Positions 1-63,836 of a stretch of 64,000 nucleotides of DNA are shown one piece after another; position 1 is the first letter of the stretch; each line of letters begins with the position of its first letter. This DNA is from Pecten maximus (Eukaryota): positions 23,498,001-23,562,000 of the forward strand of contig NC_047017.1 of the NCBI RefSeq assembly GCF_902652985.1. Direction: 5' to 3'. Position numbers and translations under genes: made by a program. The notes under the pieces were generated by a model. That model worked only from the letters and a program-made list of their open reading frames with translations, had not been told where the DNA came from and did not search any database.

Positions 1-60
1 AAATGTGTTGAATCTTTCTCATTTCGTGGTATTTACACTGATTAAAAAATAGAGTCTGAC

Positions 61-17636: not shown

Positions 17637-18774
17637 CAGAGACATATATACAGAGAGATTGGCAGCTCTCTATTTGCCCTTGTGTTTACATAGTGGCCCC
17701 TGACCTTCCCACAATCCTTTGCGGTCGCTCGGTTCAGTCTTCACTAGACGCCATATTGGAGAAAACTTGAAACCCAGACACATAATTATCGATAATTTCT
17801 ATTTGAAATCATCACCAAGATCCAATTATGTGCTTTAATTTTATTAATATCAAAGTGCAGAAGTGTCATCAATATGAAATATATCACAATTTGCTGTCCA
17901 AGTGTTTGTATTTTGAGTATGAAAGTCAAGCACAACGCAGGAAAGATCGGCGGGAATCTCCAATTTTCGAAAAGTCCCTATGGGGTTTTCGAGAATACGG
18001 ATAAATGACAACAATGCGCATGATAATCTAGACCACATTCCATAAGTATGATAGTTTTTGGTTAATTTGGTAACTTTTGTAGTGGCCTAAATAAAACGAT
18101 GTGCTTTTTGTGTGCGTTTAAAATTGACGATGTTTTGGTCGGACGTAATGGCTGCTTAATTACAAAACTTGGACATGTCGAATAGGACCCAATGGATTTT
18201 AGAAAATACGGATAAATGGCAGCAATGTGCATGATCAATAAGACTATATCCCATAAGTATGATAGTTTTTGGTTAATGTGGTAACTTTTGTAGTGGCCTA
18301 AATAAAACGATGTGCTTTTTGTGTGCGTTTAAAATTGACGATGTTTTGGTCTGACGTAATGGCGGCTTAATTACAAACTTGGACATGTCGAATAGGACGC
18401 CAATGGATCGTAGAAAATACGGATAAATGGCAACAATGTGCATGATCACTAAGACTATATCACATAATTATGATAGTTTTTGGTTAATGTGGTAACTTTT
18501 GTAGTGGCCAAAATAAAACGATGTGCTTTCTGTGTGTATTTAAAATGACGATGTTTTGGTCTGACGTAATGGCGGATTAACCAGAACATGTCGAATAAGT
18601 TCCAATACTACGATACACACATGCGCATAGCCCGATTTACCTGCGCTCGCGTGTGTTTGATAGGAGACAGGACGCTCTCGATAAGGGATATGCTTGAGTG
18701 GTCACGAATAAAGGGAGCCACTATGTGTACGGGGAAATAGCGATGTTACTAATCTCTCTGTATATATGTCTTTG
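17637..18774 (+). mobile_element. Non-autonomous TIR DNA transposon (P/Galileo-like), 1138 bp, 7-bp TSD, internal ~210-bp tandem repeats
   Basis: TIR CAGAGACATATATACAGAGAGATT / AATCTCTCTGTATATATGTCTTTG. TSD CCCCTAG at 17630-17636 and 18775-18781. Internal unit recurs at ~18040, 18251 and 18461. A second copy lies inverted at 53899-55037. Confidence 0.9.
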
Positions 18775-22587: not shown

Positions 22588-22840
22588 CCAGTAGGCTGTA
22601 TACAAATCAATCTGTTTGGTACGGTCAAACCTCATAAATGAAGGCGTCTCTGTCGTCATTTTGTTTTCGGATTAATTTTGCATACAAATACTAATTTATT
22701 TGATCAAAATTTTCAATATATTGATAATTATTTGGAAGATTGATTTTTCCAAAATTAGACATTAGTTCACCGGTTAAAGTCTGGGGTTTTTTCATCCTGG
22801 TTTGTACGAAAGTATCTCTAATAATTCAGTGCTAGCCAAA

Positions 22841-27720
<4,880 letters not shown>

Positions 27721-42300: not shown

Positions 42301-45300
42301 ATAAAATGAGTAAAAATACGTTTCATCTTAAAATAATGGTCCATAATAATCACAACTTACCTCAACTTGATCGTTCTTTACATCAACAAATGGACCAAGC
42401 TACAAAAGAAATTTTATGAATCAGTCAGTATAAAAACTTGATTTCGAATAAAAATTAACTAAGTTAATGAACAGTTATTGCTCCAACATTGAAGTCTTGG
42501 TCCTTTATTGGAAGAAGAAGGAAAGAGTGCGTTTTGTCAAAAGGACACCATAAAAGTTAACCCACCAAAAATTTAGTCTGGAAAGATTGTTTAACAAACG
42601 TTGGTTGATAAGCACGTAAGGTTTTTTTCCACAGCAATTTAGCATGGGCATAGTCTTACTTCGGGAAGGAAACCTACCCGCTGAGAAGAAAATTTTACAC
42701 TAAAGCCACAAATTATGGGAATTAACAATTCTAATGGAGAGAGACCCTTCATTGGCCCTATATGTCCCAGAAAAAAAGCCTCAATAAGATTTGTGAAGAT
42801 TTTTGTGTAAATAATTGTAGTTTAAAGTTTTAAAATTCCCAGAGAGGGATAGCAGTAGATCTCACCAATATACAGATATCTGGGCAGTCCCTGTTCAGGT
42901 ATTTACAGAGGTCTGCCAGAGGTTCATATGCCAAATTATCAGAGGTTGTGAAGGGCCCAGTGGCCACAATTACACTCAGCTTTCCTGAAAACAACATTAA
43001 TATAACATTATATAATTTGTGTTGATATCAGGTTCATGCTGCATTTCAATAAAAGTGACTAGATATAAATGTTAGGTTACTGGGGCAAAAGGACAACTTA
43101 ATATGTTTTAGTCTTCTGACACAATTAAATTCATCAAAACGTGTTAAAACACTCTAGCAATTTCATGGGAAAAAGGAACAAATTACACAGATTCCTTAAA
43201 ATGTATTTGAAGGTTACTTTGTCTAATCACCATTACAAGGCATATAAGATACATGATTTAGATTTCACATTTACATAAAACACAGCTAGTTCAGACAACT
43301 TTTACTTACCTGCTTCAGACTTTACAGCTACATCTGGTAGAGGAAGGCTAACACCCTACAAATTAAACAGATAATATCATCATGCATGTATTACAGCTTG
43401 GTCATAAAAACCATTAGAGTTAAAATGACAATTATCATTTTAAAACCACAAAAAAAATTACTTGACTCTATTGTAGATTATTGAAGAAAACCAATCGAAA
43501 ACAAATCAATACATGAAAATTAACAAAAAAATTCCCCTCAAAATCCATCAGTAACGAAGTAGTTCCTATCAGCCATATTACAGCTATTATAATACTGTTA
43601 ATTATCAAAATGTGTGACAAAATTTAGAACATAACTAAATTAACATTACAAAATAACTGTAGGCTCTTCAATAGAAGGATGATTGATCACATACAATGTA
43701 TATACCTTTGGATCACTTTGTTCAGCTATAGGTATAGCATTTTATTGATGATAGTTGTGTATTAAAATATTGACAGCAAAACAAAGATTCTTCTTAAACA
43801 ACTAACATTAGAACACTATTATCATTAAGATCAGTTGTGCACCTTTACACAGAAAATAAGTGCAAGGCTTTAAACCATTAACCCACCAATACTCCATCAA
43901 ACAAGAGGCCCAATGTGCCTGTATCGCTCACCTGGCTCTAGAGCAAATTTGCAGTTGATTGAGGTCATTTATACAGATACTATGCTGATAACAACTTTAT
44001 TCAAATATCAGAGTAAGCTAGGTTTATTCATGTCAATAAATTTTTTAGTCCTTCATTCCAGCATACTATTGGCCTAAGATCGGGTCTTGGCTCTTGGCTC
44101 TAAGCATGCTACAGACAGGCCCAATATCAAGTCCCTGGGCCTCTTGGTTATTGAGAAGAAGTCTTTTAAAGATTTTAACCTATTTGACCCATGTGACCTT
44201 GAATGAAGGTCAAGGTCATCTATTTGAACAAACTTGGTAGCCCTTCACCTAAGCATGCTACAGGCCCAATATCAAGTCCCTGGGCCTCTTGGTTATTGAG
44301 AAGAAGTCGTTTGAATATCATAACCTATATGACCCATGTGACCTTGAATGAAGGTCAAGGTCATTTATTTTAACAAACTTGGTAGCCCTTCACCCCAGCA
44401 TGCTACAGGCCCAATATCAAGTCCCTGTGCCTCTTGGTTATTGAGAAGAAGTTGTTTGAAGATTATAGCCTATTTGACCCATGTGACCTTGAATGAAGGT
44501 CAAGGTCATTTATTTAAACAAACTTTGTAGCCCTTCACCCCAGCATACTACAGGCCCAATATGAAGTTCCTGGGCCTCTTGGTTATTGAGAAGAAGTTGT
44601 TTAAATGAAAAAGTTGATGCCGGACGGACGGACGACGGACGCCACACCATGGCATAAGCTCACTTGCCCTTCGGGCAGGTGAGCTAAAAACACCAAAATA
44701 AAAATTACTTCAGGACAAACTAAGAACCATGGATGTAAGGCAATCTGAACAGCCTATTTTGTTGACAACTAAATATTTGAATTTTACCTGATGTAATTTC
44801 TTAGCAATAAACTTCTGTCCAGTATTGTTGATACCCTCCATTGCAACAATCTGAAATCAAGAGAAGAAATGATGGATGCATCATACAAACTCAATAAATG
44901 CTCTATAGTCACTTTTAATATCAACACAATACATATTATTGCTGTAAAAGTGAAATGATGAAGGATCAGGTAGGATTTTTATATTCAATATACACCTTTA
45001 AACTAATAACACATATAGTAGTTACTTGGTCATGTCAACATACCTGCCCTGGGAAAAGTGAAAATTCCTGGAGCTCAGTCAGATCAACTGGGATACACCT
45101 GCCTGCAGATGTCTCCTGGGAGCCCTCAAGTATCACAGACTTGGCATTCAGCTTGCCAATACTATCACAGCCAATACGCCCCACAACAGTGACAGTCTCC
45201 TGGACTGGTAGAGCTACGTGGGACAGATCCTCTATCTTATAATGGTCTCGGAGCTGTTTCGCTAGGTCCTCAATCATGTCATTCAGAACTGGAAAGTTGA

Positions 45301-48300
45301 GCAACATATATACTTCTAATAACAAAACTGATTTTGCCCATATACAACATATAAATCATGTGGACAGTAGTTGTAAGATACTTATAACACAAATCGATGA
45401 CGTCATTGACAATAAAAAAGTTGATGTTTAGTTTTGTTTACTATCTGAAATATATGATAGTTTGACAATACATACTACATATTGTGAAATGACTTAAGTA
45501 AATGTTTGTTCTACTAATTGACTATATTATATCTACTAATTGACTATATTATATCTACTAATTGACTATACAGTGGAACTTCGTTAACTCGAAGTCGACG
45601 GGACCATGAAAAAACTTCGAGTTATCCGAGTGTTCGAATTAAGCGAGTTATCGTTTTGGTGAAAAGTTTGGTCAATATTTGTCAACATTATATAATCATT
45701 ATAACTTCGCTCTGTCGCTCATCAGTTTAGTGTGAAGACTGGTCAATACATGGAAATATACATGTAATGTTTCGTTATGTCACTTGTAATTTGGTGTAGT
45801 TTTGCCGATATACAGTCACGATAAAGTTTCTTTCACTTAGTCACTTCAATAACGATCTGAAGTCATGTTTGCAAAAGGTAAACGATAAAACGGAATTCGA
45901 CAAAATAACAAGTTATTAATGTCTAAACAAATAACCGTTTAAGTTTAACACAGATTGCATACAAAACGTAACAGAACCATTACCCTTTTATTGGACATAT
46001 ATAAAATACTGTTTGATCGGCCTACTTACTTTTATTGATAACCACGCCATTTCCATAAGTATTAGCACCGGAAGTTGGGCTGCGCATGTGCGTATAAAAT
46101 GTTACTGTAACTGAGTTGGCGTTTTATCCGATTTAATAGACAGCACTGACCGTTACAGTTGTACTCTGAACACCTCGGCAGTAATTACGCTATTGTTTCA
46201 GCAGTTTAAAGATTTAATAGGCGCCGGTGACTGTGTCATTTCTACACCTGTAAAAACATCAGCCGGGTAGATCTACCGGTGTGTCAGAGATTAGTTCCGC
46301 TTGAGCGAACGGGTAGATGAGTTGTTGACTATCGTGTGTACTGATATCGGCGACCGCCTTGGGAAATTACCTGATGTAAGTAAAGCAGTACTTTTTATCA
46401 CCAAGACTTGTTGTTATAAGATTCAACCGACAATTTCTTTTATGAATTTATGAAACACTTATAATAGCATGTAGGTTAGTAGGCTAGTGCCGATATGTTC
46501 TGTATTACAAACGGAATTTAAATCTTAAAAAATGTCGGCGTTTGCCACCGATCGACGATACTTCGAGTTATTCGAACATTTCAAGTAGGATTTTTATTGT
46601 TGGGACCAAATTTTTACTTCGTATTATCCGAGTTTTTCGAGTTATCCGAATTCGAATTTTCCGAGTTTTTTTTACTAAGATAAAGAGAGAATTCGGCCGG
46701 GACCGGCGAGGTACTTCGAGTAAAGCGGGGTATTCGAGTTATCCGAGTTCGAGTTAACGAAGTTTCACTGTATTATAAAGTCGATTTACATGGGACAGGC
46801 TAGCCTGTTTAAATACTTCTGTAACTTGCTGTTTTTATTTTATAGATATTCTTCTATGTTGTGATGAAAATAACTAATTATTTCCCTCTATTTATGGAGG
46901 TCAAGAAGCTTTCAAATGTTAGAAATCTTGCAAATTTTGCTTTCTTGATAGATTTCCAAATAAATTTTGCGACTATGGGCCGTTTCAGGAAAACATGTAT
47001 GGGACGGGGGGAAGGCACTTTGAAATTAGGAGACCCACCTATAGGAGTGATTTAAAATTTTGATGACCCTCCAACATATTCACTATTTTGTGAATGGTAC
47101 CCTGGTATAGAAGCATTTTTAATGTAAAAATGGTACAAACACATCAAAAACATCCAACAACAGAATCAATTTATTTCAAACCCCACCAAACCATAGATGT
47201 GATTTTAATTTGAACCCACCCCAACACATGTAATTTATCTATGTGCCTTCCCTCCGTGCCTTATGTTTCCTGGAACAGCCCCAAGTCACTCCGAATATTG
47301 CAGTTCTTAAATGTTTTACACTCTTTTTCAAGGGAAGATCAGATCTGGATCAACAGGCAATTGCAATTTTTGAGAAGAACCTTTCTACGGAAATAAAGTT
47401 AATGGTGCGACAGACCCTACATCATACAATCACGGTGTTCAAAATAAGCCGACGACCAGCGCATTTCACCGGCTACTTTGCTCCCGGCGCCGGCTACTTT
47501 CAGATGTCTACTTACATATTAAAATGTTGTGAAACGTATTCTGACTTCGGGGGAGTTCGGGAAACAAATAAAACATAACCTTATTTATATAATATTCAAT
47601 GATTACTCATCGTTCACTTGTCCATGAAGAAAACAACAAGCTTCTTCACGACACCGATCAATGTTAATCTAGGTATTGTGTGATGCTTTTTACGCGCTGC
47701 GATAAAAACGTCTGACTGACCATGAGTTACAAGCACATGCTTCCGGTTCATCATGACACGAATAAACGACTTTTTTGAAGTCTCTTCAAGGAAAAAACAA
47801 AAGGGTATGTTATTTAGATGCATTTGAACTGTTCATCGTCGCACAACGGTACAATATAACCGTATGATTAACTATGGAGTGCGATCCTCTGAAGAGAGAT
47901 GATTACCAACATCTGACGTGATTGACATGTAGTTGGGTCACACTACGTAACTTACTGACACAGAATCAGCGTAATGAATTAAAATTATTAGGCACACAAT
48001 AAAGAAGTAAAATCACAGCCTTTAATAATGTATTTCGTGTTTTATATATCATTTTTCTTTAATTTGCGTTTTTTAAGATGTTCAGTTTCAGTTACATGTT
48101 TTGGAACTGTGACCTTTCTATTAAAAATGACACAAGACATGACTGTACAGATATCATTAATTCTTCACAAAAACTTCTAAATAAAACAAAAACACCAGTT
48201 CGTACACTCAGAAGTTTTACAGTACATATATATATAAAAAATGTACATGCAAAAAGGTAAAAAGTGCATTTTTTTATTGCTAAATTATTTCCAAAAACTA

Positions 48301-51300
48301 CTGTTATATAGTGGGAAAACCCATATCTGGCCTCTTTGATTTAAAATTTTCCTGGGGGAGACCCCCCATACCCCCTTTAGGAGAGGGGGCCATGCCCCCT
48401 CTCATACTATCCCCCCGCGACGCCAAAGGCGTCGCTGTTGGCTGTGTGCCTTTGGCACACATGGTGCCACCTACTATTTCTATTGTGCCAGCTACTCTAA
48501 AATCTACTGAACACCCTGACAATACGCTTACACTTTATGCAATGTGAAGAAAATAATCGTCAGACACTGTAGGATGTAATAAGAGTATGACATGCTTTAT
48601 TGTTATCCGACTCACTATATAAATGGATATTAACCAAATTTGACTGTTTTCCTATAAAACATGCTACCCATGAACTGTTGCCCGGTCATATGATTTACCG
48701 TGAATGTTACCCATAAACTGTTGCCCGATAACGCGCTGCCCAATCGAACGCGCCTAATTACAAGCATACAGATGACAGTGACTACACTACTTGTCGTCGA
48801 CAGGTTTAATTTGTAAACATTAGTCGACTGTATACATGACTTCTAGGTTTGAAGACAAACGATGACGAGCTTTTAAATGTCATAGAGAACAGAGACTCAG
48901 CTAATACGAGGAATATCATCAAGGGTTCTGTGAGTTATTAAATTTTGAATTTCAGACTGTTTTTTTTTTTTTTTTTTTGTAATTTATTCACCTCAATGGT
49001 CAGATAACAAAACAGTTTCCACTCGGTGTTGGTACTGACCAGGTGAACTGTTTCCCTCGGCCTTCGGCCTCTGGGAAACAGTTCACCTGGTCGTGAAAAC
49101 AGTTTTGACTGTTGACTGATGAGGCATGAAACAACTGTATACTATTTTACTAGTCATGCTGCTGGTTACTCATCAAATCTGGGATTAATGAAATGTGTTT
49201 AACATATTCACTATATATTTCAACAAATGAACATATACGAAGGACAAAATAAGGTTCACCTACCATTTGCTTTTTCAGTTAACTTTTGAAACATGTATTT
49301 AAAGTGTGGTTCCATAGCATTTCTGGGATCGTAATAAGCTATATGCACATCATGACCTTGACCCTTCCAGTCAGTGTTGTCATTGACCCCAAGTGCAGCA
49401 ACGCTTTCACCAGCATTCGACCTAGAGCTGAACTTCTTCGAGGGAGTTATCCTAAAAAAGAGCCATCAAAGTAATATACTTTTCTTGTGCGAGTGCCCCG
49501 AGCAGAAATTTAAATCTGGTCTGCTGTGTGATAATTTGATAATCCATTGCCCTACTGCAGAAGCCGGAGAAGCATGCTGTCAGCTGAGTGACAATCCTTT
49601 TTCAATATATTAAGTTAGATTATCAGTCATTTTTATATCCAGCAAATCAAAAGAGTTTTAGAAGATGTATGCCTATGTCTTACAATATCCTGAATCATTT
49701 TCATAAATATAATATAAAATACAACTAACCTGGTTCAAAATATGAATTATAAAACCAAGAATTGCATTTCCCCTTAAACTGTTAAAGCTTCATAATTTGA
49801 GTTTCATGAAAACTATAAAGAATATCCTAAAAAAAAGTGTTTGTTACCCCGGAGAGAAGCTGGCTGGAGAGAAGGGAACCATTGGACTACGGACACTGTT
49901 GGTGAATCGTTTCATTGGTGGGTTATCTGGAGTCAACTGTCGTTTTTGTGAAACGGCCACCTTTTTGGTGTTGGATGGTGTAGAATTTCCAGAGTAAGCA
50001 TTGTAAAGTTCAACAGCCTCATTCTCATCAATACTGGATAAAATCAAGGAAACATATAGCTGTACTTCAGGTTTAGTAGTTTAAATTTGGACTGGCAACA
50101 CTTTCAGCAAATAAAGCATTCATCTTAAAACTTGATCAATTTGTGTACATAGAAAGGATACCCATTCTGAACCGTGTTGACATCATACACTGTTGGGCCA
50201 GACTTTTTCTTGACTTGTGGTGTCCGGGGAGTCTTTTTGTTGAGTCTCTGTAATTGTGATTAAAATCCTTTCAAGCTTTCTAAAATTTCATGGGTTTCAA
50301 AGATAAATTACACTTTGGCAGGCTTGAATTAGACTATATGCATACATTTTAATTCCTGCCAACATCTATTCAAAGTGTGCACTGTTGAGATGGAATGCAT
50401 GTATTCGTTGGAATACAGATTTCTTACATATCGTATTTGACCTAATAAGGGCGCCTGCCCTAATAAGGGTGCCCCTACCTTTTTTCAAGAAAATAAATCT
50501 TTGACGGAGTGTCAAAATGGTGTTTAAAAATATCAATTCATGTGAAATGTTTTGCTACTTTATTTGTTCAATTTTCTTCAGCAAATTAAGTAACTGGAAC
50601 ACAAGTTTTCGCCACATTTTGTCTATTCCTACAGATGGCATGTCAGTGCAAAGAGCACCCGAAACTAAACACACATACAAATAATAACTTACCATCTTTA
50701 TTTGAAGATAAAGTAAAAGACTTCATTCTTGTGGATAAATAACTTTTTTTCAGAACAGAAAGCTAGTAAAAGACATTGTAAATCAATTATTAGGTCAAAG
50801 AAAACGATGTCCGATATGATCTGGGAAACCACCTGTGTCTATAAATAGAACACAAAAGAGTTCCATTTGAACATAAATGATGGAACACACATTCTCTGGC
50901 CTAAAGATCAGCTGGCATGGTTTACAAGTTTACAGGAATATTCAAGTGTTGTTTAAGCTTAATATATGATAATGAATAGATATCTTCATCTGGAATATTT
51001 TTATGACTGAATGTTTCCACAGCCTTTGGTATTCTGCTATAAGGTCGTATAGTCTGTTTCATAAAACTTCAGAATAAATAATCTTAATAAGGGCGCCCCC
51101 ACTGTCAATTACCCGCGCCCTCATTAGGTCAAATACGGTATGTCTTTAACTTACTTTTCTCAGAATAACAAAACATCATAAATAGTACTCAAATGACAAT
51201 AATGGTGCAAATAGGGATTTTGATCTGTAGGACCACTCTCAGGCAGTGCAAGTATTGATATTGTGAATGAATCAATACGTTTTGCATGTTATAGTCATGA

Positions 51301-53057
51301 TCAATCTATTACCATACATGTTCACTGCTGATGAGTTAGTTAGTCTATTCCTAGTTTAATTTTGTGTCAGTGTTCTGTTGACACTTTAATCCGTTTCTCA
51401 TTACTAGTATAATCCTACAACACAAACCTCTCTGTCAAACAGATCTAACACCTCGCAGCTGAGAGTCAGGTTTCCCTTGGTCGTCTTTGTATTGTAGAAA
51501 GCTATCCATTCTGTACTGATTTTTGATGCATCCAGTCGGTACAACACACACAACTCCTTTACTGTAATAAAACAAAACTTTACCAAATCAGCTATTTTTG
51601 TTTTTAGACCATGAAATATTAATGTTTCATTTACATGTCAGTAACAAAGTGAGATATACTTAGGTCATGAACATATATGTCAATTATCTTTCAATTAAGA
51701 CATCTTGGTATTATATGTCAATTTATAATATCAGCAGACTAAATCTCTATTTCTGACTTCCTGGAATGGTTTTTATGATTACAAGGATGTGTACATGTCA
51801 GATCTTTCAACATGTTTCTGACCCTTCAAATAGTATATGAAGCAAATATTAATATCAATCAAAATTACAACAGATTACAATTGTAGCAGGCCGGGTTTTA
51901 ATTGTAAATACTGTACATAGTTGTATGGTCGCCTTCTAGCTTCCGGCTAGGGGGAATTTCCCTTTAGCTCAGTCAGTAGAGCGGCGGACCAGTAAGCCGA
52001 GGGTCGTGGGTTCGATCCCGGCTGGCTGCACACTACTACTCCTTGAACTTTTACATTGGTGCCGCAGACCATTCCAAGTGAAAGCAAGAGGCTTCCTTGG
52101 AGAGAGAACCTAGGTTGGTGTGTTCCGGGGCGTCAACACGTTTGAAGGAGGGAGTAGTGTAGCAGGCCAGGTTTTAATTGTAAATACTGTACATAGTTGT
52201 ATGGTCGCCTTCTAGCTTCCGGCTAGGGGGAATTTCCCTTTAGCTCAGTCGGTAGAGCGATGGACCAGTAAGCCGAGGGTCGCGGGTTTGATCCCGGCTG
52301 GCTGCACACTACTACTCCTTGAAGTTTTAGACAATATTGTTGATTTGTCTCTATTAGTACTATATAGTCTATTTGTATCTAAAAATAGTGGACTGTACTG
52401 ATAGTCTGATAGTAACTATATTGTAATGAATGATGGCGAAGCAATGCATTTTAAGAGAAACATTTGCGCATTCAAGACAATCAACCTTGAGACAATAACT
52501 AGTGAAGGAACAATTTAAGTAATTTAATGCTACAGACCGATACCCGGCCGTTATTATCTCAAGGTTAATTATTGTCTTGAATGCGCAAACGTTTCTCTTA
52601 AAATCCATTGTAGGCATTAACACATATTTGCACAACTATCATGTCAGACAAAACAACCATCAGTATTATGAATCCAATGAATTGACTAAATGATACCATT
52701 AAATCAAATCAAGATAACAATGCTTGGAAGCTGCGGTAGTCACTTCGGTATCGTTATTTACTAGTCATATCGGCCATTTATAATTGCAGCACGCATACAA
52801 ATAATATCGCAATCGAGAACATGCAATAACAAATAATTGTGAGTAGACTGAGTTGGTCAATAACTGTAAATAACAGCTTATTTAGACTTTTTACCGAGTG
52901 AAATCGGGATATGCCATTCTTAAATTTTAACCATTGTGAACGCGAGATAATTTGTCAGATGAATAATTAATTGCTTACATTTATCTATAACATCTTGATT
53001 TTCAAGCTCTACACCAAAAATTGAAAATTCATCCTTCAGATCTTCGTCTGATGCCAT
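39267..53057 (-). CDS. POLA2: DNA polymerase alpha subunit B, 15 exons, 606 aa
   Basis: Exons 53057-52979, 51561-51428, 50247-50162, 50033-49848, 49451-49264, 45288-45044, 44850-44788, 43355-43310, 42984-42866, 42399-42361, 42240-42167, 41656-41557, 40682-40567, 40021-39832, 39422-39267 (1821 nt, all GT-AG, in phase). Motifs KYMFQKL, VTVVGRIGCDSIGKLNAKSVILEGS, FSLFPGQIVAMEG, GPFTTSDNLAYEPL, GPFVD, VYPQPPF, INPGRLSKG. Confidence 0.97.
43899..44689 (-). mobile_element. Complete non-autonomous Helentron/HINE (pearl/DINE-like) element with 145-bp internal tandem repeats
   Basis: Minus strand: 5' TTTTTAGCTCACCTGCCCGAAGGGCAAGTGAGCT stem, then a (GTCC)n microsatellite, then ~3.5 x 145-bp units (GACCCATGTG at 44186, 44331, 44476), then 3' CAGGTGAGCGATACAGG hairpin-CTTGTT. 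Confidence 0.88.
45571..46770. mobile_element. Tc1/mariner-pogo (Tigger-like) MITE, 1200 bp, TA TSD
   Basis: TA|CAGTGGAACTTCGTTAACTCGAA ... TTCGAGTTAACGAAGTTTCACTG|TA, with subterminal TTCGAGTTATCCGA repeats. Confidence 0.9.
46977..47281. mobile_element. Degenerate short TIR element (GGGC termini, possibly PIF/Harbinger-type)
   Basis: GGGCCGTTTCAGGAAAACAT ... ATGTTTCCTGGAACAGCCC. TSD unclear. Confidence 0.45.
47431..48518. mobile_element. Non-autonomous TIR element, 1088 bp, CA(G/C)GGTG termini, 5-bp TSD (hAT5-like)
   Basis: CACGGTGTTCA ... TGAACACCCTG; ACAAT on both sides; subterminal GGCTACT/GCTACT motifs at both ends. Confidence 0.7.
48985..49140. repeat. Imperfect hairpin, probably a Crypton-like element terminus
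   Basis: GACCAGGTGAACTGTTTCCC-TCGGCCTTCGGCCTCT-GGGAAACAGTTCACCTGGTC (20-bp perfect stem) with weaker outer arms. Confidence 0.6.
50431..51138. mobile_element. Tc1/mariner-pogo MITE, 708 bp, TA TSD
   Basis: TA|TCGTATTTGACCTAATAAGGGCGC ... GCGCCCTCATTAGGTCAAATACGG|TA. Confidence 0.85.
51882..52331 (+). mobile_element. TRIM (miniature LTR retrotransposon) with tRNA-like Pol III promoter in both LTRs (Helenus-like), in POLA2 intron 1
   Basis: LTRs 51882-52055 and 52158-52331 (174 bp each, 8 differences). The 102-bp internal region has PBS TGGTGCCG at 52057 and PPT GAAGGAGGGAGTAG. 4-bp TSD CAAT. A box TAGCTCAGTC(G/A)G and B box GGTT(C/T)GATCCC in each LTR. Confidence 0.93.
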
Positions 53058-53312
53058 TTCTTCTTTTTCTTTTTTCTTCTCCTCCCGCCTTGTCAAAAAT
53101 TTATTCTTTCCCGCGTAATATTTTGTACACATCCGGTTGGTTGTATCATTTTGCTGTTAATCATAAACACCCAAATACGTAGTAATTTTATGATGAAAAA
53201 AATCAGATTTTATTCAAAGTTATTTTTTCAAATATTCTGATTTTTTAACGACATATTTTTGGAAATGAGTATTCTTACTTAAGGTCCGCACTGAAGCTTC
53301 CCAAGTTTCAAG
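53058..53312. promoter_or_regulatory. Compact bidirectional promoter between POLA2 and the cadherin-like/U-box gene
   Basis: The divergent ATGs are only 255 bp apart. E2F-like TTTCCCGCG at ~53107-53115 and TCCCGCC at ~53083. Confidence 0.7.
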
Positions 53313-56300
53313 ATGGACGACTGCAATCTTGAAAAGTTAGCTGTCAAACCTGGAAAATTAACTCCAGCATTTAACAAGGATACTACAGATTACGCGGTGA
53401 CCGTTGCAAGCAATGTGGAGAAAATACGAATTGATCCACTGACAAGTGACACTGGTGCATCCTATTCTATATCGGTACGATTATGTTTCTATCGTTTCTG
53501 TGAGCAAAACAGTGCAGATACGATCTTGACTTTGTATTGTATTCTTTTCACTTTCCCGCAACGAAACATTCCTCCAATCACATGCATCTCTAATTGATGT
53601 TTGATATGAAATCAGGCAGCATTGCATGAAACGAGCGCAGCGTCTACAGTACACGTATATAGTGTAGTTATTATTATTATTTTTTAAATAACATTGTTTT
53701 AATGTTTAAACTATTATTTATCTTATTCGATATACAGTTCAGAGGAAGAACAAACTTTTTTGGAATTTATAATGGCTCCGTCTGTGGCTCGGCGTAACGT
53801 TTGTCATAGGAACAGTAAGGACCAGCAAAGGAACTCCATGATTGAATAGTTTATCAAACGTACTTATTTGTAATTAAATTTCAGTTATTTATCCTGACCA
53901 GAGACATATATATACAGAGATAAGTAACATCGCTATTTCCCCGTATAAGTGGTGGCTCCCTTTATTCGTGACCACTCAAGCATATCCCTTATCGAGAGCG
54001 CCTTGTCCCCTATCAAACACACGCGAGCACAGGTAAATCGGGTTTTGCGCATGTGTGTATCTGTACTGGAACTTATTCGACATGTTCTGGTTAATCCGCC
54101 ATTATGTCAGACCAAAACAACATCAATTTTAGATACACACAAAAAGCACATCGTTTTATTTAGGCCGCTACAAAAGTTACCACATTAACCAAAAACTATC
54201 ATACTTATGGGATATATAGTCTTATAGTCCGTGCACATTGTTGTCATTTATGCGTATTTTCGAAAATCCATTGGGTCCTATTCGACATGTCCAAGTTTTG
54301 TAATTAAGCAGCCATTACGTCAGACCAAAACATCGTCAATTTTAAACGCACACAAAAAGCACCTCGTTTTATTTAGGCCACTACAAAAGTTACCACATTA
54401 ACCAAAAACTATCATACTTATGGGATATAGTCTTATTGATCATGCACATTGTTGTCATTTATCCGTATTTTCGGAAATCCACTGGGTCCTATTGACATGT
54501 CCAAGTTTTGTAATTAAGTAGCCATTACGTCAGACCAAAACATCGTCAATTTTAAACGCACACAAAAAGCACATCGTTTTATCTAGGCCACTACAAAAGT
54601 TACCACATTAACCAAAAACTATCATACTTATGGAATATGGTCTTGTTTATCATGCACATTGTTGTCATTTATCCGTATTCTCGAAAACCCCATATTGACT
54701 TTTTCGAAAATTGGAGATTCCCGCCGATCTTTCCTGCGGTGTGCTTGACTTTCATACTCAAAATACAAACACTTGGACAGCAAATTGTGATATATTTCAT
54801 ATTGATGACACTTCTGCACTTTGATATTAATAAAATTAAAGCACATAATTGGATCTTGGTGATGATTTCAAATAGAAATTATCGATAATTATGTGTGTGG
54901 TTTTCACGATTTCTCTAATATGGCGTCAAGTGAAGACTGAACCAAGCGACCGAAAAGGATTGTGGGAAGGTCAGGGGCCACTATGTTGACACAAGGGCAA
55001 ATATAGAGTTACCGATCTCTCTGTATATATGTCTCTGTCCTGACATGATATACTTTGATTTATCTCTCAAAATCACGTAAAAGAAGGAATTGCAGAGTGC
55101 TGATTTAGATTTCAATTTACTTCTGGTTCACGCATTGAGAAATAAACTGAAAATTTTAAAGAAGTTTGTGTTTCTGAAGAAGCATGAATTTTACACACCC
55201 CCAATTAAAACATCACCTACAACTGAGACTAGTTTAGATTAAGAAAGTATGGCAAGGTTTTTTAGCATTGTAAAATTAGGACCGCAGTAACTCTATACAC
55301 CTGCTATTTCCATGACGAAGGATTTTGGAAGCATTTTTAATGTTAATTACCATGACTACAACTGTTTGTACATGTTGCCAGAAAAGAGTTTGCTTCTCAT
55401 GAATATGCTGAAAGAAGATTTGTGCTCTTAGTTAAGCAATAACAAATTAAAATACTTGATTTTAATGCAAACTGGCTTAACATTGTTTATAAGGATTGGT
55501 GCAAATCTGCCTGTAGTTAAGCAATCAGACTGAATAGCCTATATAATAAAACAAATAACCAGTAGACCAATCGTAGTGTTTTGTGCAAACATCAGACATC
55601 TATATCTATCAGAATGTCTGTGTGGTGTTAGGGCCAGAGGAAATTTGGGCTTATTCAAACTGCGCTAAATTCTTGGCAAAACTTTCCTCTGGCATCAACA
55701 TCAGATATTTGGCAGTTCTATGGTTAAGATATTTTGCATAGACTTAGAGCGGACTAACGTTTGGAAATATAAAGATCTAAAAAATGTGTTTAATTGCTTA
55801 ATAAGGTTTTGGATGTTGTCAAAGAAAGTCCATTATAATACTAATGACTATAGTTTCAAAACAGAGAGTATGTTATAAGGTCATCCTACTAGCTCAGGCA
55901 AGTGGGAATTTACCTTTAGACAAGTGGTAAGATGTTCTCTTTAGTTTTAGTCTCAGCATGGGTAGGATGTTTTTTATTAGGCTTACTCCTTCCTATTACA
56001 TTTTTGTTTGTCGTTGACCACCCTATGTGAGATTGAAAGTTTTCCTTGGAGCCAAAAATCCTTGGTTGTATATTGAGGGAATTACCAAAAGGTTGAAGGA
56101 ATTATCAAGAGATTCAAGGTATAGCTGTCTCAATCAGCATAGACAGTGGAAAAAGGAATAGTGTAAAATTGGAAAGTATAAGGTCAACCTACCTTTTCAG
56201 GCTAGCTGTAGTTTCCCTTTAGCCTGGTGGTAGGATGTCTGCTTGGGGAGTGAGAGGTTGTTAGTTTGAGCCCAAGCATGGACAGGATATTTCAACCCAG

Positions 56301-59300
56301 ACGTGTGAGAATTTAAAAAAAAACTTTGTCTATGCATTTGGACCTATCTCAGTGAATATAATTATTATGTGTATAGAGTAACAGATAATTTAAGATCTTT
56401 TAGGGTTCTAGGTTAACATTCCATAAAATGACCCGGGGTTGTGGCAAATCCAAGTGACTGTCTGCATAAGGAGTAAAGGAGAAAGGAAAATTATATAACT
56501 ATAGGTACTTTATATTATCCATGAATGAGATGATTATTTATCCAGTATCAAAATTCATGTTCAGTTTTATCTGTACATTCTCTTACTTTCCACAATTTAA
56601 AATTTCCCAACATGATAATGTGAGTGCCAACTTTATATACTGACCTTACTTTGTAGGGAAGTGGAGGAGAGAAGGAAGTTGGGCTTCCTGAGGGAGCTGT
56701 AACTGACATCAAGATAGAAGTCACATCAGAAGATGGCACAGTGAAAAACTATTTCCTCCATGTCAAACGACTCTCAGCAAAAGATGCCGTACTCAGTGAC
56801 CTCAAGTTTTCTCAGGGGTGTCTCATGCCTGACTTTGATTCTGCAGTTACTACTTATTCTTGTAAGTTACACTTACTTAAAGCTTAAATTTACATGTTAA
56901 ATCTCTGTTGATAATGGCAAAACTTATATACATTTATATTCATTTCTGTTAACCCTACCATGACTAAGTATGGTTTACAGTTTTAGTATTCTAAGATATT
57001 ACTGTTGAATTCTAATTCACTTATTTAAAGATATTTTACCAGATTAATCCCAGATTACATATTCTAATTCTATTGTAATTAGATTTTGATTTTAGTTTTT
57101 GACAGTATATTTTACCTGATTACATAGATATTCTAACATGCAATTGGGTTTTGCTGTCATGTTTTGACAATTTATATGTATTTGTTTTATCAGGAAGTAT
57201 GTCAAGCATGATCTTATTTCACAATCATCTTTTCAATAGGTATATTACCATGCAATGTGGCCAGTGTCATTGCTAAACCAGTTGCTCCAGATCCCAAAAA
57301 TGTCATTCTGGTATGTGGAGAGAAGCCAGGAACAGCCTACCCCCTAAATGTGGGGGAGACCAACATCCAGCTAGAGGTCACATCTGCTGATGGCTCAAAC
57401 AAACAGGTAAAATGGCAGTTATTACTTCAAAAGTAATTGTTATTATAAGATTTTCTTTTTTTCAGGAATATTTCTGGGTTAGGTTCATGAATGTTGTGTG
57501 CGAATTTTTCTTCATTTTTTTTCATAACAGTAGATGGGCTAGTTCCTTGTATGCTATTATTCTGAAAAGTTCAATGAGACTTTCAGCAAACAATTATTTT
57601 TTAATTTCCAGATGTCACCTCTAAATGAAATATAATACAAAATTATTATAATTATATTAGTGTTCATTTCCACCACCAGACTTACAGTGTTGACATACTG
57701 AGGAAACCTATGCCAAGATATGCCAAGTTTACAGACCCTGAAATGGCACAGAAGTATGAATGTCCAATATCACTCTCACCTCTCTACCGACCTATCTCCA
57801 TCCGGGGAAGTGAGCCCAAACACACCTACTCGGCCCCAAACATTGACGCTATGACTCGCACTTCCAAGGTGGATCCTATCAGTGGAATGTCCCTGATGGG
57901 TGAATGGAGAATAGTTGATATAGCCATAGAGAAACAAATGGCTGCAGCATCAGCAAGCATCCCACTGACATATGGGGGTAAATTATCAAACTACCTGCTC
58001 TTATTCCAATTAATGTCCAGCTTTGTCACTCTAAAGATGTTTCACCTTTTTATATGAAGATAAATATATCAAATGTGATGGTATGAACATTTGTTTATTT
58101 GCGGTCTTGCTTGATTAAATCCATATACTGATGATAAAATATGTTTTCCTTTTGTGTAGGTACCTCAGATGCTGTGAAGTTTGGAGAATTAGCTGCCACG
58201 ATTGAAAAATGCAATGTGGCACCTAAAGTTGAGGTAAATATAACACACCTGTGTGCATACAATTAGACACCTGTGTTTATACATACAATGAGACACCTGT
58301 GTTTATACATACAATGAGACACCTGTGTTTATACATACAATGAGACACCTGTGTTTATACATACAATTAGACACCTGTGTTTATACATACAATGAGACAC
58401 CTGTGTTAATATATACAATGAGACACCTGTGTTTATACATACAAGGAGACACCTGTGTTTATACATACAATGAGACACCTGTGTTTATACATACAATTAG
58501 ACACCTGTGTTTTACATCCAATGAGACACCTGTGTTTATACATACAATGATACACATGTGTTTTACATCCAATTAGACACCTATGTTTATACATATAATG
58601 AGACACCTGTGTTTATACATACAATGAGACACCTGTGTTTGTACATACAATGAGACACCTGTGTTTATACTTACAATTAGACACCTGTGTTTATACATAC
58701 AATGAGACACCTGTGTTAATATATACAATGAGACACCTGTGTTTATACATACAAGGAGACACCTGTGTTTAAACATGCAATGAGACATGTGTTTATACAT
58801 ACAATGAGACACATGTGTTTATACATATCATGAGACACCTGTGTTTAAACATACAATGAGACACCTGTGTTTTACATATAATGAGACACATGTGTTTATA
58901 CATACAATAAGACACATGTGTCTATACATACAATGAGACACCTATGTTTATACATATAATGAGACACCTGTGTTTATACATACAATGAGACACCTGTGTT
59001 TATGCATACAATGAGACACCTGTGTTTTACATCCAATTAGACACCTATGTTTATACATATAATGAGACACCTGTGTTTATACTTACAATGAGACACCTGT
59101 GTTTGTACATACAATGAGACACCTGTGTTTAAACATATAATGAGACATCTGTGTTTATACATACAATGAGACACATGTGTTTATGCATACAATGGGACAC
59201 ATGTGTTTTACATCCAATGAGACACCTGTGTTTATAATACAATGGTACACATGTGTTTTACATACAATGAGACACATGTGTTTATGCATACAATGGGACA

Positions 59301-62300
59301 CCTGTGTTTTACATCCAATGAGACACCTGTGTTTATACATACAATGAGACACCTGTGTTTATACATATAATGAGACACATGTGGCTATATATATAATGAG
59401 ACACCAGTGTTTTACATACAATGAGACACCTGTGTTTATACATATAATGAGACACCTGTGTTTATACAGATAATGAGACACCTGTGTTTATATATATAAT
59501 GAGACACCTGTGTTTTACATACAATGAGACACCTGTGTTTATACATACAATGAGACACCTGTGTTTATACAGATAATGAGACACCTGTGTTTATATATAT
59601 AATGAGACACCTGTGTTTATACATATAATGAGACACCTGTGTTTATACATATAATGAGACACATGTGGTTATATATATAATGAAACACCTGTGTTTTACA
59701 TCCAATTAGACACCTGTGTTTTTACATACAATGAGACACCTGTGTTTATATATACAATGAGACACCTGTGTTTATATATACAATGAGACACCTGTGTTTA
59801 TATATACTATGAGACACCTGTGTTTATACATACACTTAGACACCTCTGTTTATACATACAATGGAACACCTGTGTTAATACATACAATGAGACACCTGTG
59901 TTTATACATACAATGGACACATGTGTTTATACATACAATGAGACACCAGTGTTTATACATACAATGAGACACCTGTGTTTATATATACAATGAGACACCT
60001 GTGTTTATACATGCAATGAGACACCTGTCAATACATACATTGAGACACCAGTGTTAATTAAACGAAACACCTGTGTTTATTCATACAGTTAGACACTTGT
60101 TTGTACTTACAATGAGACACTTGTTTGTACATACAATTAGACACCATATTTATACAATGATACACTTGTTTATGCATACAATGGGAAGCACCTGTCAATA
60201 TACAGGTAAAAACATACAGAATCAGAAGACTACAGTATTTTATATGAGGACAATGAAACAATTAAGCAATCCTTGATACCGTATGGCGTGTAAAGTTTGT
60301 TGTGCATAAACATTCAATATTGTTTGGTTATTGATAAGAAACCACAAAGATAAATTGATGTGAAGAACTAGAATATAATTTTCTGATTGGTAACCATGAA
60401 CATTTGTACCATGAAACAGACTAATTAACTGGAAACCATGAAGCAAAAATGTTAACATATATTCATGTTCTACATTATATTAAAAATGTTCACATTATTA
60501 TTTTAAATAATTTTTTCATTCCAGGATATGAAAGACAAATTTAAGGATTCTTCAGCTTCATTAACACACATTGTAAAGGTTGGTATGACAAGGAACGATA
60601 TAAAGTATGTGTATTACTAGGACCATTAAGGACAGCCATTATCTAGAGCTGTGCGGGGTTGGGTTATAATATTGGTCGAGGGCAACAATTCTGTAAGACG
60701 GTTTTAAATAAGGTGTAAGCCAAAATTGGTATGTAACTGAATCTTTGTCTGTAATTGAGGAAACCTGTTCTTCTTCAGTTTTATGGGGCGCTGTTTTACT
60801 ATTTATTCCCATTTGGTGATATCACCTATTCGAATAGGTGATATCACCAATTCATTTTTCAAATAAGTGATATCACCTATTCGAATAGGTGATATCACCA
60901 ATTCGAATAGGTGATATCACTTAATGAAACGAATAGGTGATATCACTTATTCGAATAGGTGATATCACTCATTCGAATAGGTGATATCACTCATTCGAAT
61001 AGGTGATATCACTTAATGAAACGAATAGGTGATATCACTTATTCGAATAGGTGATATCACCCATTCGAATAGGTGATATCACTTATAAAATTCTTAAGTG
61101 ATATCACCTATTCGAATGAGTGATATCACCTATACGAATAGGTGATATCATTTATGAAATTTTATAAGTGATATCACCTATTCGAATGAGTGATATCACT
61201 ATGGGGCGCCGTTTTACTATTTATTCCCATTTGGTGATATCACCCATTCGAATAGGTGATATCACTCATTCATTTTTAAAATAAGTGATATCACCTATTC
61301 GAATTGGTGATACCGTATAGCGGGAAATTTTAGCGGGGCTTTAATTTGGCGATTTGGCGGGTCCGTATAAAGATAGCCAAAATTTAACCCGTCAAATTTT
61401 AACACCGCCAAATAAAAAGACGAGAAAATTTCAATTTACCCAATAGTTTCCGTTCGGCCGCCATTTACCTTTGATAACTCAAGAGAGTAACGACTGGTAG
61501 TAACGTTGGATGTTGCCTGGCAATTGTCGGCCAAAATGCCGATAGGTACATGCGAATAGCTAGTGAACAACTACTCACGATACATGTATAGCAACACAAG
61601 TATGATATATATCGCATCATAATTAATTTCTGTGAAAACAAAGCCATCTACCCATACCATTCAATGAACTGATGTTAACACTTTACCTGTAGACTAATTG
61701 TTCAACTCACCTGTACGTATACACATCATACAATAGATGACCATGGCGATATCTTACGGTTGATTAAATTCTCTTTGTCTGTTGCTTGTACACATACTCA
61801 TATAAACACTAATTTGACAAATCTACATGTATGTGTTCGTCTGAATTTTTTTGGTAATAATTTCCGGTTTCTAGGCAGAGGATCGATAATACACAAAACA
61901 CTTAATAAACATGGATAGGTTGTATGGAAATATCATAATTATCTATATATATCGGTAGGTAATATATATGCTCAACGCCAAATTAAAACCATAGATTTAA
62001 GGAAATCGCCAAATTTTAACACGCCAAAATTTAACTTTCAGTTTTCATGACCAAATCGCCAAATTTTATGACCGCTAAAATTTCCCGCTATACGGTATCA
62101 CCTATTCGTTTCATTAAGTGATATCACCTATTCATTAATACCTAGATTTTAAATACATGTATTGTAAAAATGAAATATTTGATGCCATGGCAGTTGAATT
62201 AATTTCCATTTGATATGATGAACATGTTTCCATGTAAAGTTTGGTGCTAAATGTCAGGTAATAGACCGATCAGGTGATATAGGGAAGTCTAGTACAGAAT

Positions 62301-63836
62301 ACTGCATGGGATATCCTTGTCTGGGTGTACATGTACATGAAAGAGTTTAATTTTCTCACCTTTGTCAGTATTTTTAATTTAGAGAAATATTTTATATCAT
62401 CATAACAGTCTTGCTTTTGTTTCTTCCTGTAATGACTAGGTGAGAGGATGGGAGAAGAATTTACACCAGATATTTGGAGTGACCAGTGTTGATAAATTAG
62501 TTGGACAGGCAAAAGATCAAATCAAAACCTATTTTAAAATTCTACCCAAACCAGGTTTGTGATTTTTTTTTTGTGTGTAATAAACAACTATTAATTTTCG
62601 GATAAGGTACACATTTTGATGTAATTTAAATTTGATTGCATGTCATTATGTTTGATTTTGAATAACATCATGCAGACTGCTTTAGAAAATTCAAAATGTA
62701 AATAAGAATTTGTACAGCTTGCACAACACAAAAATGTCCACTACTACTGGGAAACTCTTTTACAGGAGAATGTAACTTTATTGTAATATTCTTACTATCA
62801 CAATATAGCATGTGATAGTCTGTCACAATATAACTTATGATGCTGATACTCTATTGCAATATAGCATGTCATAGTCTATTACAATATAATGTATGATACT
62901 GATACTCTATTACAATATAGCATGTCATAGTCTATTACAATATAGCATGTCATAGTCTATTACAATATAACATGTAATAGTCTATGACAACATGCTATTC
63001 TGTTTTAAGTGAATTTTTCAGTTTGTTTTGAATATGAAAATTCTGGTTAAACCAGTGTAAAAATGTTGACATAAAAAAACTTGTACGTTAAGAAATTATG
63101 TCCTGATTTGTATGTGTTTGTCTCACACAGGTCAGTCTAAACAGTGGTCAGAGGGAGAGGGTCCTCTCGATTGTCTCCTCAGGGCTGCTCAGTTTTATGC
63201 TGTAGCTATCTCAAACAAGCCTAAAGATGCCAGTCTGCACCTACAGCTGGGCATGGTTCTGGAGGAGCGGTACTATGCTGAGGATCTGTTTGGTCTTAAA
63301 AAAGAGGTAAGTGAGGTGTTGTAAGAATCGTAAGTAAGTTACTTTATTATTTTAACTGAGGCTGATACCAGTTATGGATGATAACTTTGCCTGATTTCAT
63401 TTCATTAAATTTATTGTACAAGATTGGAGAGTACTACAGGATTAGACAACAGGCAATGCCTATATCAGTCTCCTCCTATTATATTGCCTGATTAAGGCTA
63501 GCAGAAAAAAATAATGATAACCAAATTATCAACCAACAATGATTTCGCTGCTTTAAAGGAATTGAAAACTTAATTTGACACCTACACATTTGTATTATAT
63601 ATTTGTAGGAATCTGATTCTCTACCATCTATGAACTTGGATGCAAAAGAGAGTTCAAAAGAAGAGGAATGTGCAGCTATTTGCAAGCTCCATGGTGTAGA
63701 TGCTGATGCAGCTCCTCTTGCTCTCCAACTGAAGGCTATAGACGCAGAGTACCAGCAGCTGAATCAGAATGGCCAGAGTGCAAAGGCTGACCGCATCATG
63801 GGACTGTTTGCCTGGAAGTCCAAACAGGCAAAACCG
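53313..63836 (+). CDS. Uncharacterised protein: 2 x cadherin-like beta-sandwich + U-box + TPR-like helices; 9 exons / 493 aa in window, 3' end beyond right edge
   Basis: Exons 53313-53474, 56657-56861, 57240-57406, 57680-57977, 58160-58233, 60525-60578, 62440-62554, 63131-63306, 63609-63836 (GT-AG, in phase). Repeat motifs L..L....G.L.P.F....T.Y...V/L and I.IEVTS.DG....Y.....R occur twice. U-box-like YECPISLSPLYRP...HTY...I.......DPISG. TPR-like AAQFYAVAISNKPKDASLHLQLGMVLE. Confidence 0.85.
53899..55037 (-). mobile_element. Second copy (inverted) of the P/Galileo-like element, 1139 bp, 7-bp TSD
   Basis: CAGAGACATATATATACAGAGA ... TCTCTCTGTATATATGTCTCTG. TSD TCCTGAC at 53892-53898 and 55038-55044. 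Reverse-complement homologous to 17637-18774 along its length. Confidence 0.92.
58244..60200 (+). repeat. 26-bp minisatellite (GAGACACCTGTGTTTATACATACAAT)n, ~70 copies, filling most of intron 5
   Basis: Period 26 (AGACAC at 58265, 58291, 58317). Starts ~10 bp after the donor site and decays at the 3' end. Confidence 0.97.
60782..62135. repeat. Array of palindromic units (CGAATAGGTGATATCACCTATTCG) in two blocks with a shared leader; second block interrupted by a MITE
   Basis: Leader TATGGGGCGCYGTTTTACTATTTATTCCCATTTGGTGATATCACC at 60782 and ~61200; about 20 GTGATATCAC cores. Confidence 0.85.
61313..62095. mobile_element. Tc1/mariner-pogo MITE, 783 bp, TA TSD, inserted into the centre of a GATATC core
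   Basis: GGTGA-TA|CCGTATAGCGGGAAATTTTAGCGG ... CCGCTAAAATTTCCCGCTATACGG|TA-TCACC; perfect 24-bp TIR. Confidence 0.93.
62790..62995 (+). repeat. ~25-bp degenerate minisatellite (CTATTACAATATAGCATGTCATAGT)n
   Basis: About 7 imperfect copies. Confidence 0.75.

Follow-up and report, generated by a model that had tools for sequence, protein, structure and literature searches.

The 64,000-nucleotide stretch of Pecten maximus contig NC_047017.1 analyzed here (the window) contains on its plus strand the first nine exons of LOC117323628, which encodes an uncharacterized scallop protein of 1098 amino acids (aa; P0001) combining two cadherin-like beta-sandwiches, a small domain of the RING/U-box fold and a solenoid of tetratricopeptide repeats (TPRs). 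We propose, with a probability of about 0.5, that this protein is a cytosolic TRAF-like, RING-derived ubiquitin ligase whose catalytic domain became zinc-free independently of the true U-boxes. According to this proposal, the ancestral protein would have carried a full C3HC4 RING followed by TRAF-type zinc fingers (ZFs); a D/N-P-x-D/N loop would have taken the place of zinc site II in one or two events close to the animal root, and CP[IV][ST]..[YF]S would later have taken that of site I, probably in two or three separate bilaterian events. The face formed by I208, L210, M236 and P244 would bind the ubiquitin-loaded conjugating enzyme (E2~ubiquitin), the TPR solenoid and the tandem beta-sandwiches would hold a substrate or anchor the ligase, and activation would involve a basic residue outside the core (e.g., K263), as in TRAF6, because the linchpin arginine is missing. 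The cellular context is a guess, in which ciliated or flagellated cells lead.

Zinc Ligands in the Orthologous Group

The scallop residues at the eight RING ligand positions are C206, S209, P224, H226, S229, N232, D243 and S246. Only C206 and H226 are retained, and the domain is likely zinc-free, as judged from the replaced ligands. We aligned 78 orthologs from molluscs, annelids, nemerteans, a bryozoan, echinoderms, a hemichordate, amphioxus, tunicates, cartilaginous and bony fish, coelacanth, amphibians, cnidarians, sponges, a ctenophore and the chytrid Gaertneriomyces; near-duplicates, the majority of fragments and a single chimeric model were excluded. Three non-redundant database records labeled 'Mustela putorius furo', which have accessions in common with tilapia proteins, were regarded as mislabeled. 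The four cysteines of site I are kept in 14 of the 78 proteins. Two of these, from Gaertneriomyces and the ctenophore Bolinopsis, have all eight C3HC4 ligands together with TRAF-type fingers (the last ligand pair of the chytrid is misaligned in the 78-protein alignment and was read from the sequence). The other 12 (three sponges, two cnidarians, Saccoglossus and six further records, five of them sponge-like) keep site I only, their site II being replaced by D/N/H-P-x-D/N/T. Both sites are missing from the remaining 64 proteins, scallop included, among which 5 have no site-I cysteine, 51 have one and 8 have two. Two, one and no zinc sites are distributed as 7/36/134 among all 177 collected members, which are partly redundant, and the one-site state is also that of the six metagenome loci covering the domain, each of which has a coral or sponge-like reference as its nearest. 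Vertebrates, amphioxus, echinoderms and cnidarians retain the ligands of zinc finger 1; lophotrochozoans, including the scallop, have lost them.

A gene tree computed by a quick method from the helical parts only, with 46 of the 78 proteins, tracks animal phylogeny, with a long chytrid branch and no resolution at the base of the bilaterians. Saccoglossus, which keeps site I, groups with the echinoderms with a support of 99, and two or three site-I losses follow if cysteines are assumed not to be regained. The resemblance to U-boxes is likely convergent, since the orthologous group includes zinc RINGs, does not match the U-box family PF04564 and has a different architecture. The view of U-boxes as RINGs without zinc is an old one, drawn from a comparison of end points. 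Here three states occur in orthologs of one gene, which makes it possible to compare their stability, zinc content and E2 activation directly and to map compensating substitutions.

A bolder reading, which we offer tentatively, is that this single-copy family represents a living RING-to-U-box transition with two, one or no zincs, in which all states would be active ligases, and that it forms an overlooked TRAF-like class of ubiquitin ligases (E3s) of flagellated opisthokonts that was lost in amniotes. In the same tentative scheme, bilaterians other than Saccoglossus would have become zinc-free through two or three parallel losses converging on the U-box consensus. If so, sponges, cnidarians and bilaterians would be set apart from ctenophores by one shared character, their lack of site II. 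As a side observation, comparison of P0289 and P0362 with the sponge, cnidarian and bilaterian orthologs places the loss of site II with the same D/N-P replacement in sponges, cnidarians and bilaterians and not in the ctenophore. As a single, weak character, this agrees with a placement of ctenophores as the sister group of all other animals, and parallel loss is clearly possible in this domain.

Fold and Family Membership of the RING-Derived Domain

The AlphaFold model of the scallop protein (52-sequence alignment, predicted local distance difference test score (pLDDT) 83, predicted template modeling score (pTM) 0.76) has a small mixed domain at about aa 200-270, and a separate model of exon 4 (pLDDT 83.6) was used for fold searches. 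TRAF6 was ranked first by Foldseek (E 6.8e-4, template modeling (TM) score 0.65), and the first U-box was at rank 32. A wide structural search returned RING1B (Z 10.3, root-mean-square deviation (rmsd) 1.4, 69 residues aligned), TRAF6 (Z 9.2, rmsd 2.3, 83 aligned), the CHIP U-box (Z 9.0, rmsd 2.6, 74 aligned) and Ufd2 (Z 8.7, rmsd 3.3, 76 aligned).

TRAF6 is also the best RING match of the family profile (E 6.7e-6). The whole coral ortholog matches the RING-ZF1-ZF2 region of TRAF6 with E 4.4e-8, which reveals TRAF-type fingers after its RING, and its RING-ZF region alone gives E 2.5e-9; the corresponding fingers of the ctenophore and the chytrid were read from the sequence. The ctenophore ortholog passes the zf-C3HC4 cut-off (22.4 vs. 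21 bits), and the sole match of scallop exon 4 is TRAF6 with a non-significant E of 1.9. PF04564 did not match exon 4 at E<=10, matched 0 of 6 family proteins at E<=1 and 0 of 5 at E<=0.1, and was absent among the best 25 of the 40 families matched by 35 members, so that at most two members could match it. The gene's locus is not among the 24 scallop matches of a PF04564 genome scan at E<=10, and a profile of the 64 zinc-free members run against the scallop U-box-scan loci reached at best a non-significant 10.3 bits (locus L019).

Thus, the domain has the RING/U-box fold, yet it is outside the U-box family, because PF04564 is unmatched, the best sequence match is TRAF6 and the outgroup orthologs are zinc RINGs. 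The C3HC4 RINGs of the outgroups and the TRAF6 match, considered without a joint RING/U-box tree, also argue against U-box ancestry and against orthology to any of seven animal U-box genes. The original prediction, made from the letters of the window, had assigned this segment to the U-boxes; it was right about the fold and wrong about membership in PF04564, the best sequence match being TRAF6. Its label of a candidate E3 is supported. Because Pfam RING and U-box scans miss the bilaterian members, censuses of ligases likely omit this family.

The E2-Facing Surface and Predicted Ligase Activity

The scallop residues predicted to face the E2 are I208, L210, I233, M236 and P244, with G247 at the linchpin position. 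Hydrophobic residues occupy position 208 in 78 of 78 orthologs, 210 in 73, 233 in 78 and 236 in 73, and position 244 is Pro in 75, a pattern suggestive of a preserved E2 surface. At the linchpin, K/R is found in 1 of the 78 proteins, E in 35, G in 25 and D in 10, and the residue is non-cationic even in the orthologs with a full RING (Ser in the ctenophore, Ala in the chytrid). The family therefore almost entirely lacks a cationic linchpin, a feature that is not universal, as TRAF6 has Asn there; the scallop U-box locus L019, which we take to be PRP19, has Gly. In place of a linchpin, TRAF6 is described as using Arg126 of its linker helix and Arg147 of ZF1 from the partner subunit (PMC5702613). 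K263 of the scallop protein aligns with Arg126, and K/R is found at this position in 45 of the 78 orthologs, as mapped manually via the coral/TRAF6 alignment. A homodimer prediction for aa 186-300, in which the alignment was not used, scored 0.00 and has no bearing either way on dimerization. The search for E2 genes in the scallop genome gave 59 matches, all partial.

Several points weigh against the proposal of a RING-derived ligase that lost its zinc independently of U-boxes. The linchpin residue is acidic (E/D) in 45 of the 78 orthologs, and non-Arg linchpins of RNF38, Glu included, are reported to have mostly minimal activity (PMC12326332). The position of TRAF6 Arg147, mapped in the same manual way, is K/R in only 7 of the 78, and molluscs have a degenerate form of the zinc finger that would carry it. 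Conservation of the hydrophobic residues could reflect folding instead of E2 binding. The RING and U-box matches of the fold model are nearly tied and too close to tell the two classes apart, parsimony needs only two site-I changes (one loss and a regain), and the polarity given by the outgroups rests on one chytrid genus and one ctenophore. The evidence on ligase activity is mixed; an active ligase appears to us about as probable as not, and a ubiquitin-binding or structural pseudo-ligase less probable.

A pseudo-ligase scaffold of the same ancestry would not activate E2. Instead, its domain would form a structural hinge, enable a TPR adaptor to bind ubiquitin, or pair with another RING as the inactive partner. 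We consider it rather unlikely, though the lack of a cationic linchpin even in full-RING orthologs, its frequent replacement by an acidic residue and the progressive loss of zinc sites and fingers agree with it. So does the distribution of conservation, which peaks in the C-terminal 154 residues (mean 0.69, 45 of 154 columns at >=90%) and not in the RING region (mean 0.58, 7 of 71 columns at >=90%). IFT172 sets a precedent, in that its U-box-like domain joined to TPRs is described as having an occluded E2 site and binding ubiquitin (PMC13290226). On the other hand, the hydrophobic E2 positions named in the same source (loop-1 Ile/Leu, helix, loop-2 Pro) are kept in our family from sponges to frogs and molluscs, and the ligand losses mirror the substitutions of U-boxes, unlike random decay.

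Cadherin-Like Domains and the Origin of the Architecture

The cadherin-like domain PF12733 matches the protein twice (E 1.5e-25, 89.9 bits vs. a cut-off of 24.2) and was found by Pfam scan in 35 of 35 family members. In the AlphaFold model, aa 6-186 form two beta-sandwiches, with beta strands in the PF12733 region, so that both the domain matches and the predicted fold bear out the two cadherin-like domains of the original prediction. The N-terminus is without a hydrophobic stretch (11-residue hydropathy maximum of 0.75), the 19-residue maximum is 1.35 in scallop aa 1-493 and 2.09 across the 78 orthologs, and 74 of the 78 start with M-[DN]-[DN] directly at the first domain. Hydropathy and these starts support the claimed absence of a signal peptide and a cytosolic N-terminus, in place of the secreted or surface location typical of the PF12733 family. 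A cytosolic use would be unusual for this domain, which elsewhere is known from surface proteins.

The cadherin-like pair is 33-41% identical to the repeats of 179 non-family proteins, which were chosen by the family profile, and the scallop and chytrid pairs are 29% identical to each other. The few non-family repeat proteins with an assigned species are bacterial. This similarity fits the bacterial origin with lateral transfer that was proposed, along with carbohydrate binding, for this domain by Anantharaman and Aravind (2010; PMC2824669). The chytrid Gaertneriomyces has the whole architecture. Consequently, the fusion should be older than the animal-fungal split, barring a move between eukaryotes, and any bacterial transfer would predate that split and would not be specific to animals. 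A tree computed from 97 columns of 24 family and 50 non-family cadherin-like domains (74 in all) left 41 of its 71 branches open, and it gives neither a donor nor an answer as to whether the two sandwiches arrived as a pair. The suggested bacterial transfer into animals is thus not upheld as stated, and the description of the domain as mostly bacterial is qualified by CPED1, another animal protein with a PF12733 domain.

The scallop genome has one copy of the gene and one other plausible PF12733 exon, and its scan with the close repeat protein P0166 gave a single, uninformative match of 22%. The scallop and amphioxus proteins are 53% identical, which indicates slow evolution. A pattern-limited search of prokaryotic genomes gave 129 matches, none related to the C-terminal part. 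All 19 loci of a metagenome scan are nearest to animal references, with no protist among them. Family members account for 11 of the 150 proteins listed by a representative-protein search, long repeat proteins filling the rest, and in the ESM Atlas the family's own cluster is the only one above 0.9.

The original prediction had envisaged a canonical U-box E3 with bacterial sandwiches transferred into animals, serving as a cytosolic immune sensor of glycans or microbes. That the cadherin-like pair is closer to non-family repeats than the scallop pair is to that of the chytrid, and that TRAF6 is an immune ligase, would suit such a sensor, as would the lateral transfer and carbohydrate binding proposed for the domain. 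It appears highly improbable to us, as PF04564 is unmatched, the fusion is present in the chytrid, the domain tree lacks resolution and the gene is single-copy and slowly evolving. Invertebrate pattern-recognition families are typically neither single-copy nor slowly evolving. None of the analyses run supports recognition of glycans or microbes by the sandwiches.

TPR Solenoid, Basic Insert and Taxonomic Distribution

The TPR matches of the scallop protein are under the Pfam cut-offs, the best being TPR_11 (E 2e-5), which is found at E<=0.1 in 35 of 35 family members. The model contains a helical solenoid from about aa 320-330 to the end, interrupted by a disordered insert at 829-937, and the fold of this solenoid matches TPR proteins in a generic way, with LGN on top (Z 13.9, rmsd 7.0, 304 aligned). 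The TPR-like helices noted earlier are therefore real features of the family, seen both in the TPR_11 matches and in the modeled solenoid. Ala, Pro, Gly, Lys and Arg abound in the insert, which has a net charge of +15 and contains 8 RG; its net charge is at least +5 in 76 of the 78 orthologs.

We also considered that the protein is in the first place a ciliary or flagellar component, namely an adaptor with TPRs that would act in motile cilia or sperm, and a ligase second, its basic disordered insert binding microtubules. This is compatible with either a ligase or a pseudo-ligase and is in our opinion doubtful. The taxa involved (a zoosporic chytrid, a ctenophore, sponges, cnidarians, spiralians, deuterostomes, fish and amphibians) and the conserved positive charge of the insert accord with it. 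Moreover, judged by NCBI names, amniotes, arthropods, nematodes and non-flagellated fungi are all missing from the 104 matches to the conserved C-terminus, among which many fish and amphibians are found. Against this idea, amniotes have motile cilia yet give no match, and neither an alga, a ciliate nor a choanoflagellate is matched; these taxon absences are soft, because the searches need shared exact words. No full-length ortholog is found among the best 60 of the 101 profile matches in the PDB or among 49 coral-protein matches, and an X-box-like pattern has 28 matches vs. 23.5 expected, none near the start codon.

Gene Model, Transcripts and Probable Promoter

The structure of the gene and its splicing were established directly. 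The nine exons within the window (Table 1) have AG/GT at every boundary and translate without stops into 493 aa, identical to residues 1-493 of LOC117323628. The nine-exon model of the original prediction is exact, and the sequence motifs it quoted are present in the translation. Eleven further exons lie within 13 kb past the window end, reaching about 76,290 in extended window coordinates, and bring the scallop gene to 20 exons. Five public runs were used, of which X4 is RNA on record and the other four are RNA by the tool's guess. In contigs assembled from these runs, 6 of the 8 introns are spliced out at GT..AG: the first intron in 3 of 4 runs, the last two in 4 of 4 and three others also in 4 of 4. 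The two introns flanking exon 6 have no whole joint and are supported by loose contig ends reading into this exon. For comparison, P0057, P0058, P0059, P0153 and P0323 are full-length orthologs on contigs reaching 1.2 Mb, close to the glass sponge Oopsacas, which suggests that this Oopsacas-like gene is intron-free, vs. the 20 exons in scallop.

Table 1. Exons and domains of LOC117323628 in window coordinates.
Feature	Position	Strand	Residues	Content
Head-to-head interval with POLA2	53058..53312	.		255 bases; POLA2 start codon at 53057, minus strand
Exon 1	53313..53474	+	1-54	First half of cadherin-like domain 1 (PF12733 E 1e-6); conserved Met start
Exon 2	56657..56861	+	55-122	End of cadherin-like domain 1, start of domain 2
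Exon 3	57240..57406	+	123-178	Cadherin-like domain 2
Exon 4	57680..57977	+	179-277	Last strand of domain 2, likely zinc-free RING-derived (U-box-like) domain, linker helix
RING-derived domain	57743..57955	+	200-270	Inside exon 4
Degenerate TRAF-type zinc finger 1	57956..58233	+	271-296	End of exon 4 and exon 5
Exon 5	58160..58233	+		Rest of degenerate zinc finger 1
Exon 6	60525..60578	+	303-320	Linker; basal orthologs have an extra zinc finger here
Exon 7	62440..62554	+	321-358	Invariant W324, first helix of the solenoid
Exon 8	63131..63306	+	359-417	First TPR-like helix pair (370-412)
Exon 9	63609..63836	+	418-493	Conserved helical insert in the solenoid
Remainder of the gene	outside window	+	494-1098	More TPRs, basic disordered insert 829-937, conserved helical C-terminus

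The interval shared with POLA2 likely constitutes a bidirectional promoter and leaves little space for an upstream coding exon. Such an exon, considered because of the AG before the ATG, is unlikely, as the run contigs show no joint into it and Met1 is conserved. The interval also contains the element TTTCCCGCG near 53108, which is presumably E2F-like. POLA2 itself (DNA polymerase alpha subunit B) occupies 39802-53057 of the minus strand, where four exons give Pfam matches to its N-terminal, OB and phosphoesterase-like domains.

Genomic Neighborhood

The minus strand of the window further encodes an intronless BTB-BACK-Kelch (KLHL-type) gene at 33668-35671, which belongs to a class of ubiquitin-ligase adaptors, an intronless rhodopsin-family G-protein-coupled receptor at 7380-8564 (7tm_1, E 2.9e-28) and exons of a coiled-coil gene at 19-5036 (DUF4200, E 5e-5, below the cut-off), presumably similar to CCDC42/CFAP73 of a ciliary family. 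Plus-strand exons at 22778-26689, one of which was scanned with no Pfam match, are presumably YIPF4-like, and ARAGORN places a tRNA-Ser(AGA) at 25607-25680 within this span.

Repeats are found in and around LOC117323628. Intron 1 (53900-55000) includes a 210-base tandem repeat at 54091-54687 with flanks, in which contig depth rises up to about 1000, and a similar unit is located near 17850-18500; this repeat is probably dispersed and transcribed. Two intronic satellites consist of a 26-mer repeated 74 times and a palindromic 22-mer repeated 21 times (58256-60156 and 60815-61312). At 51970-52300 on the minus strand, two tandem tRNA-like sequences, not called by ARAGORN, are probably a tRNA-derived short interspersed element. 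Beyond the window, locus L006 (G000:C3:23601001-23611000) has an 882-codon open frame on the minus strand, which we take to encode a reverse transcriptase like that of long interspersed elements.

Comparison with Known Systems

The original prediction knew of no characterized animal protein with this architecture. This holds insofar as the literature searched contains no characterized ortholog; the architecture itself was catalogued in 2010, when the sea-urchin protein LOC580673 was listed as 'CadL+CadL+ring+cart' in the supplement of Anantharaman and Aravind (PMC2824669). LOC580673 (P0045) is a direct ortholog of the scallop protein, with 44% identity over 89% of the query. Its cluster of five members also lists proteins from Lottia, Capitella and two from Branchiostoma; the entry is a table line that gives RING and a TRAF-type finger for the sea urchin alone, and in the part of the source available it covers neither TPRs, nor chytrid, ctenophore, sponge and vertebrate members, nor a ligand series or function (PMC2824669). 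This paper was the only relevant one retrieved with the identifiers of 11 orthologs, PF12733 and topic searches, which did not cover the supplements of other papers, so that further tables may list the gene. Our additions are the graded loss of zinc ligands in one orthologous group, the chytrid ortholog and an apparent loss in amniotes. They bring to attention a candidate E3 that evolves slowly and occurs in Xenopus, fish, sea urchin and Ciona.

TRAF6 is the best sequence match and the top Foldseek match, has the RING, linker helix and zinc fingers in the same order and lacks an Arg linchpin, and the basic residue of its linker helix is partly kept in the family. In contrast to TRAF6, the family has cadherin-like domains in front and TPRs behind, has lost the zinc sites in most animals and mostly lacks an equivalent of Arg147; Pfam scans of the family showed no match to a MATH/TRAF domain, and the C-terminal part is helical in the model. 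The animal U-box ligases (UBE4A/B, CHIP, PRP19, CYC4, UIP5 and WDSUB1; PMC3087547) share with most family members a probably zinc-free RING fold and similar CP[IV]S and DP..[GEN]..L motifs, and CHIP (Z 9.0) also pairs TPRs with its U-box. They differ in their architecture and in PF04564, which is unmatched in the family, and the family has zinc-RING orthologs; the main text of the U-box survey does not contain the whole words 'cadherin' and 'TPR' (PMC3087547). The U-box-like domain of IFT172 is likewise a zinc-free RING fold joined to TPR helices, but it is C-terminal, its human loop 2 is replaced by a helix, and it is reported to bind ubiquitin, with weak evidence of ligase activity (PMC13290226).

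Gid2 offers a precedent for the one-site state of sponges and cnidarians. We know of no two-one-zero zinc series in its orthologs. It is described as a catalytic one-zinc RING (10.1101/2021.04.07.436316), and it depends on its partner Gid9. CPED1 (C7orf58), the other animal PF12733 protein, is secreted and, as described in PMC11257572, combines this domain with ATP-grasp and PC-esterase domains in place of the RING and TPRs that accompany it in the scallop protein.

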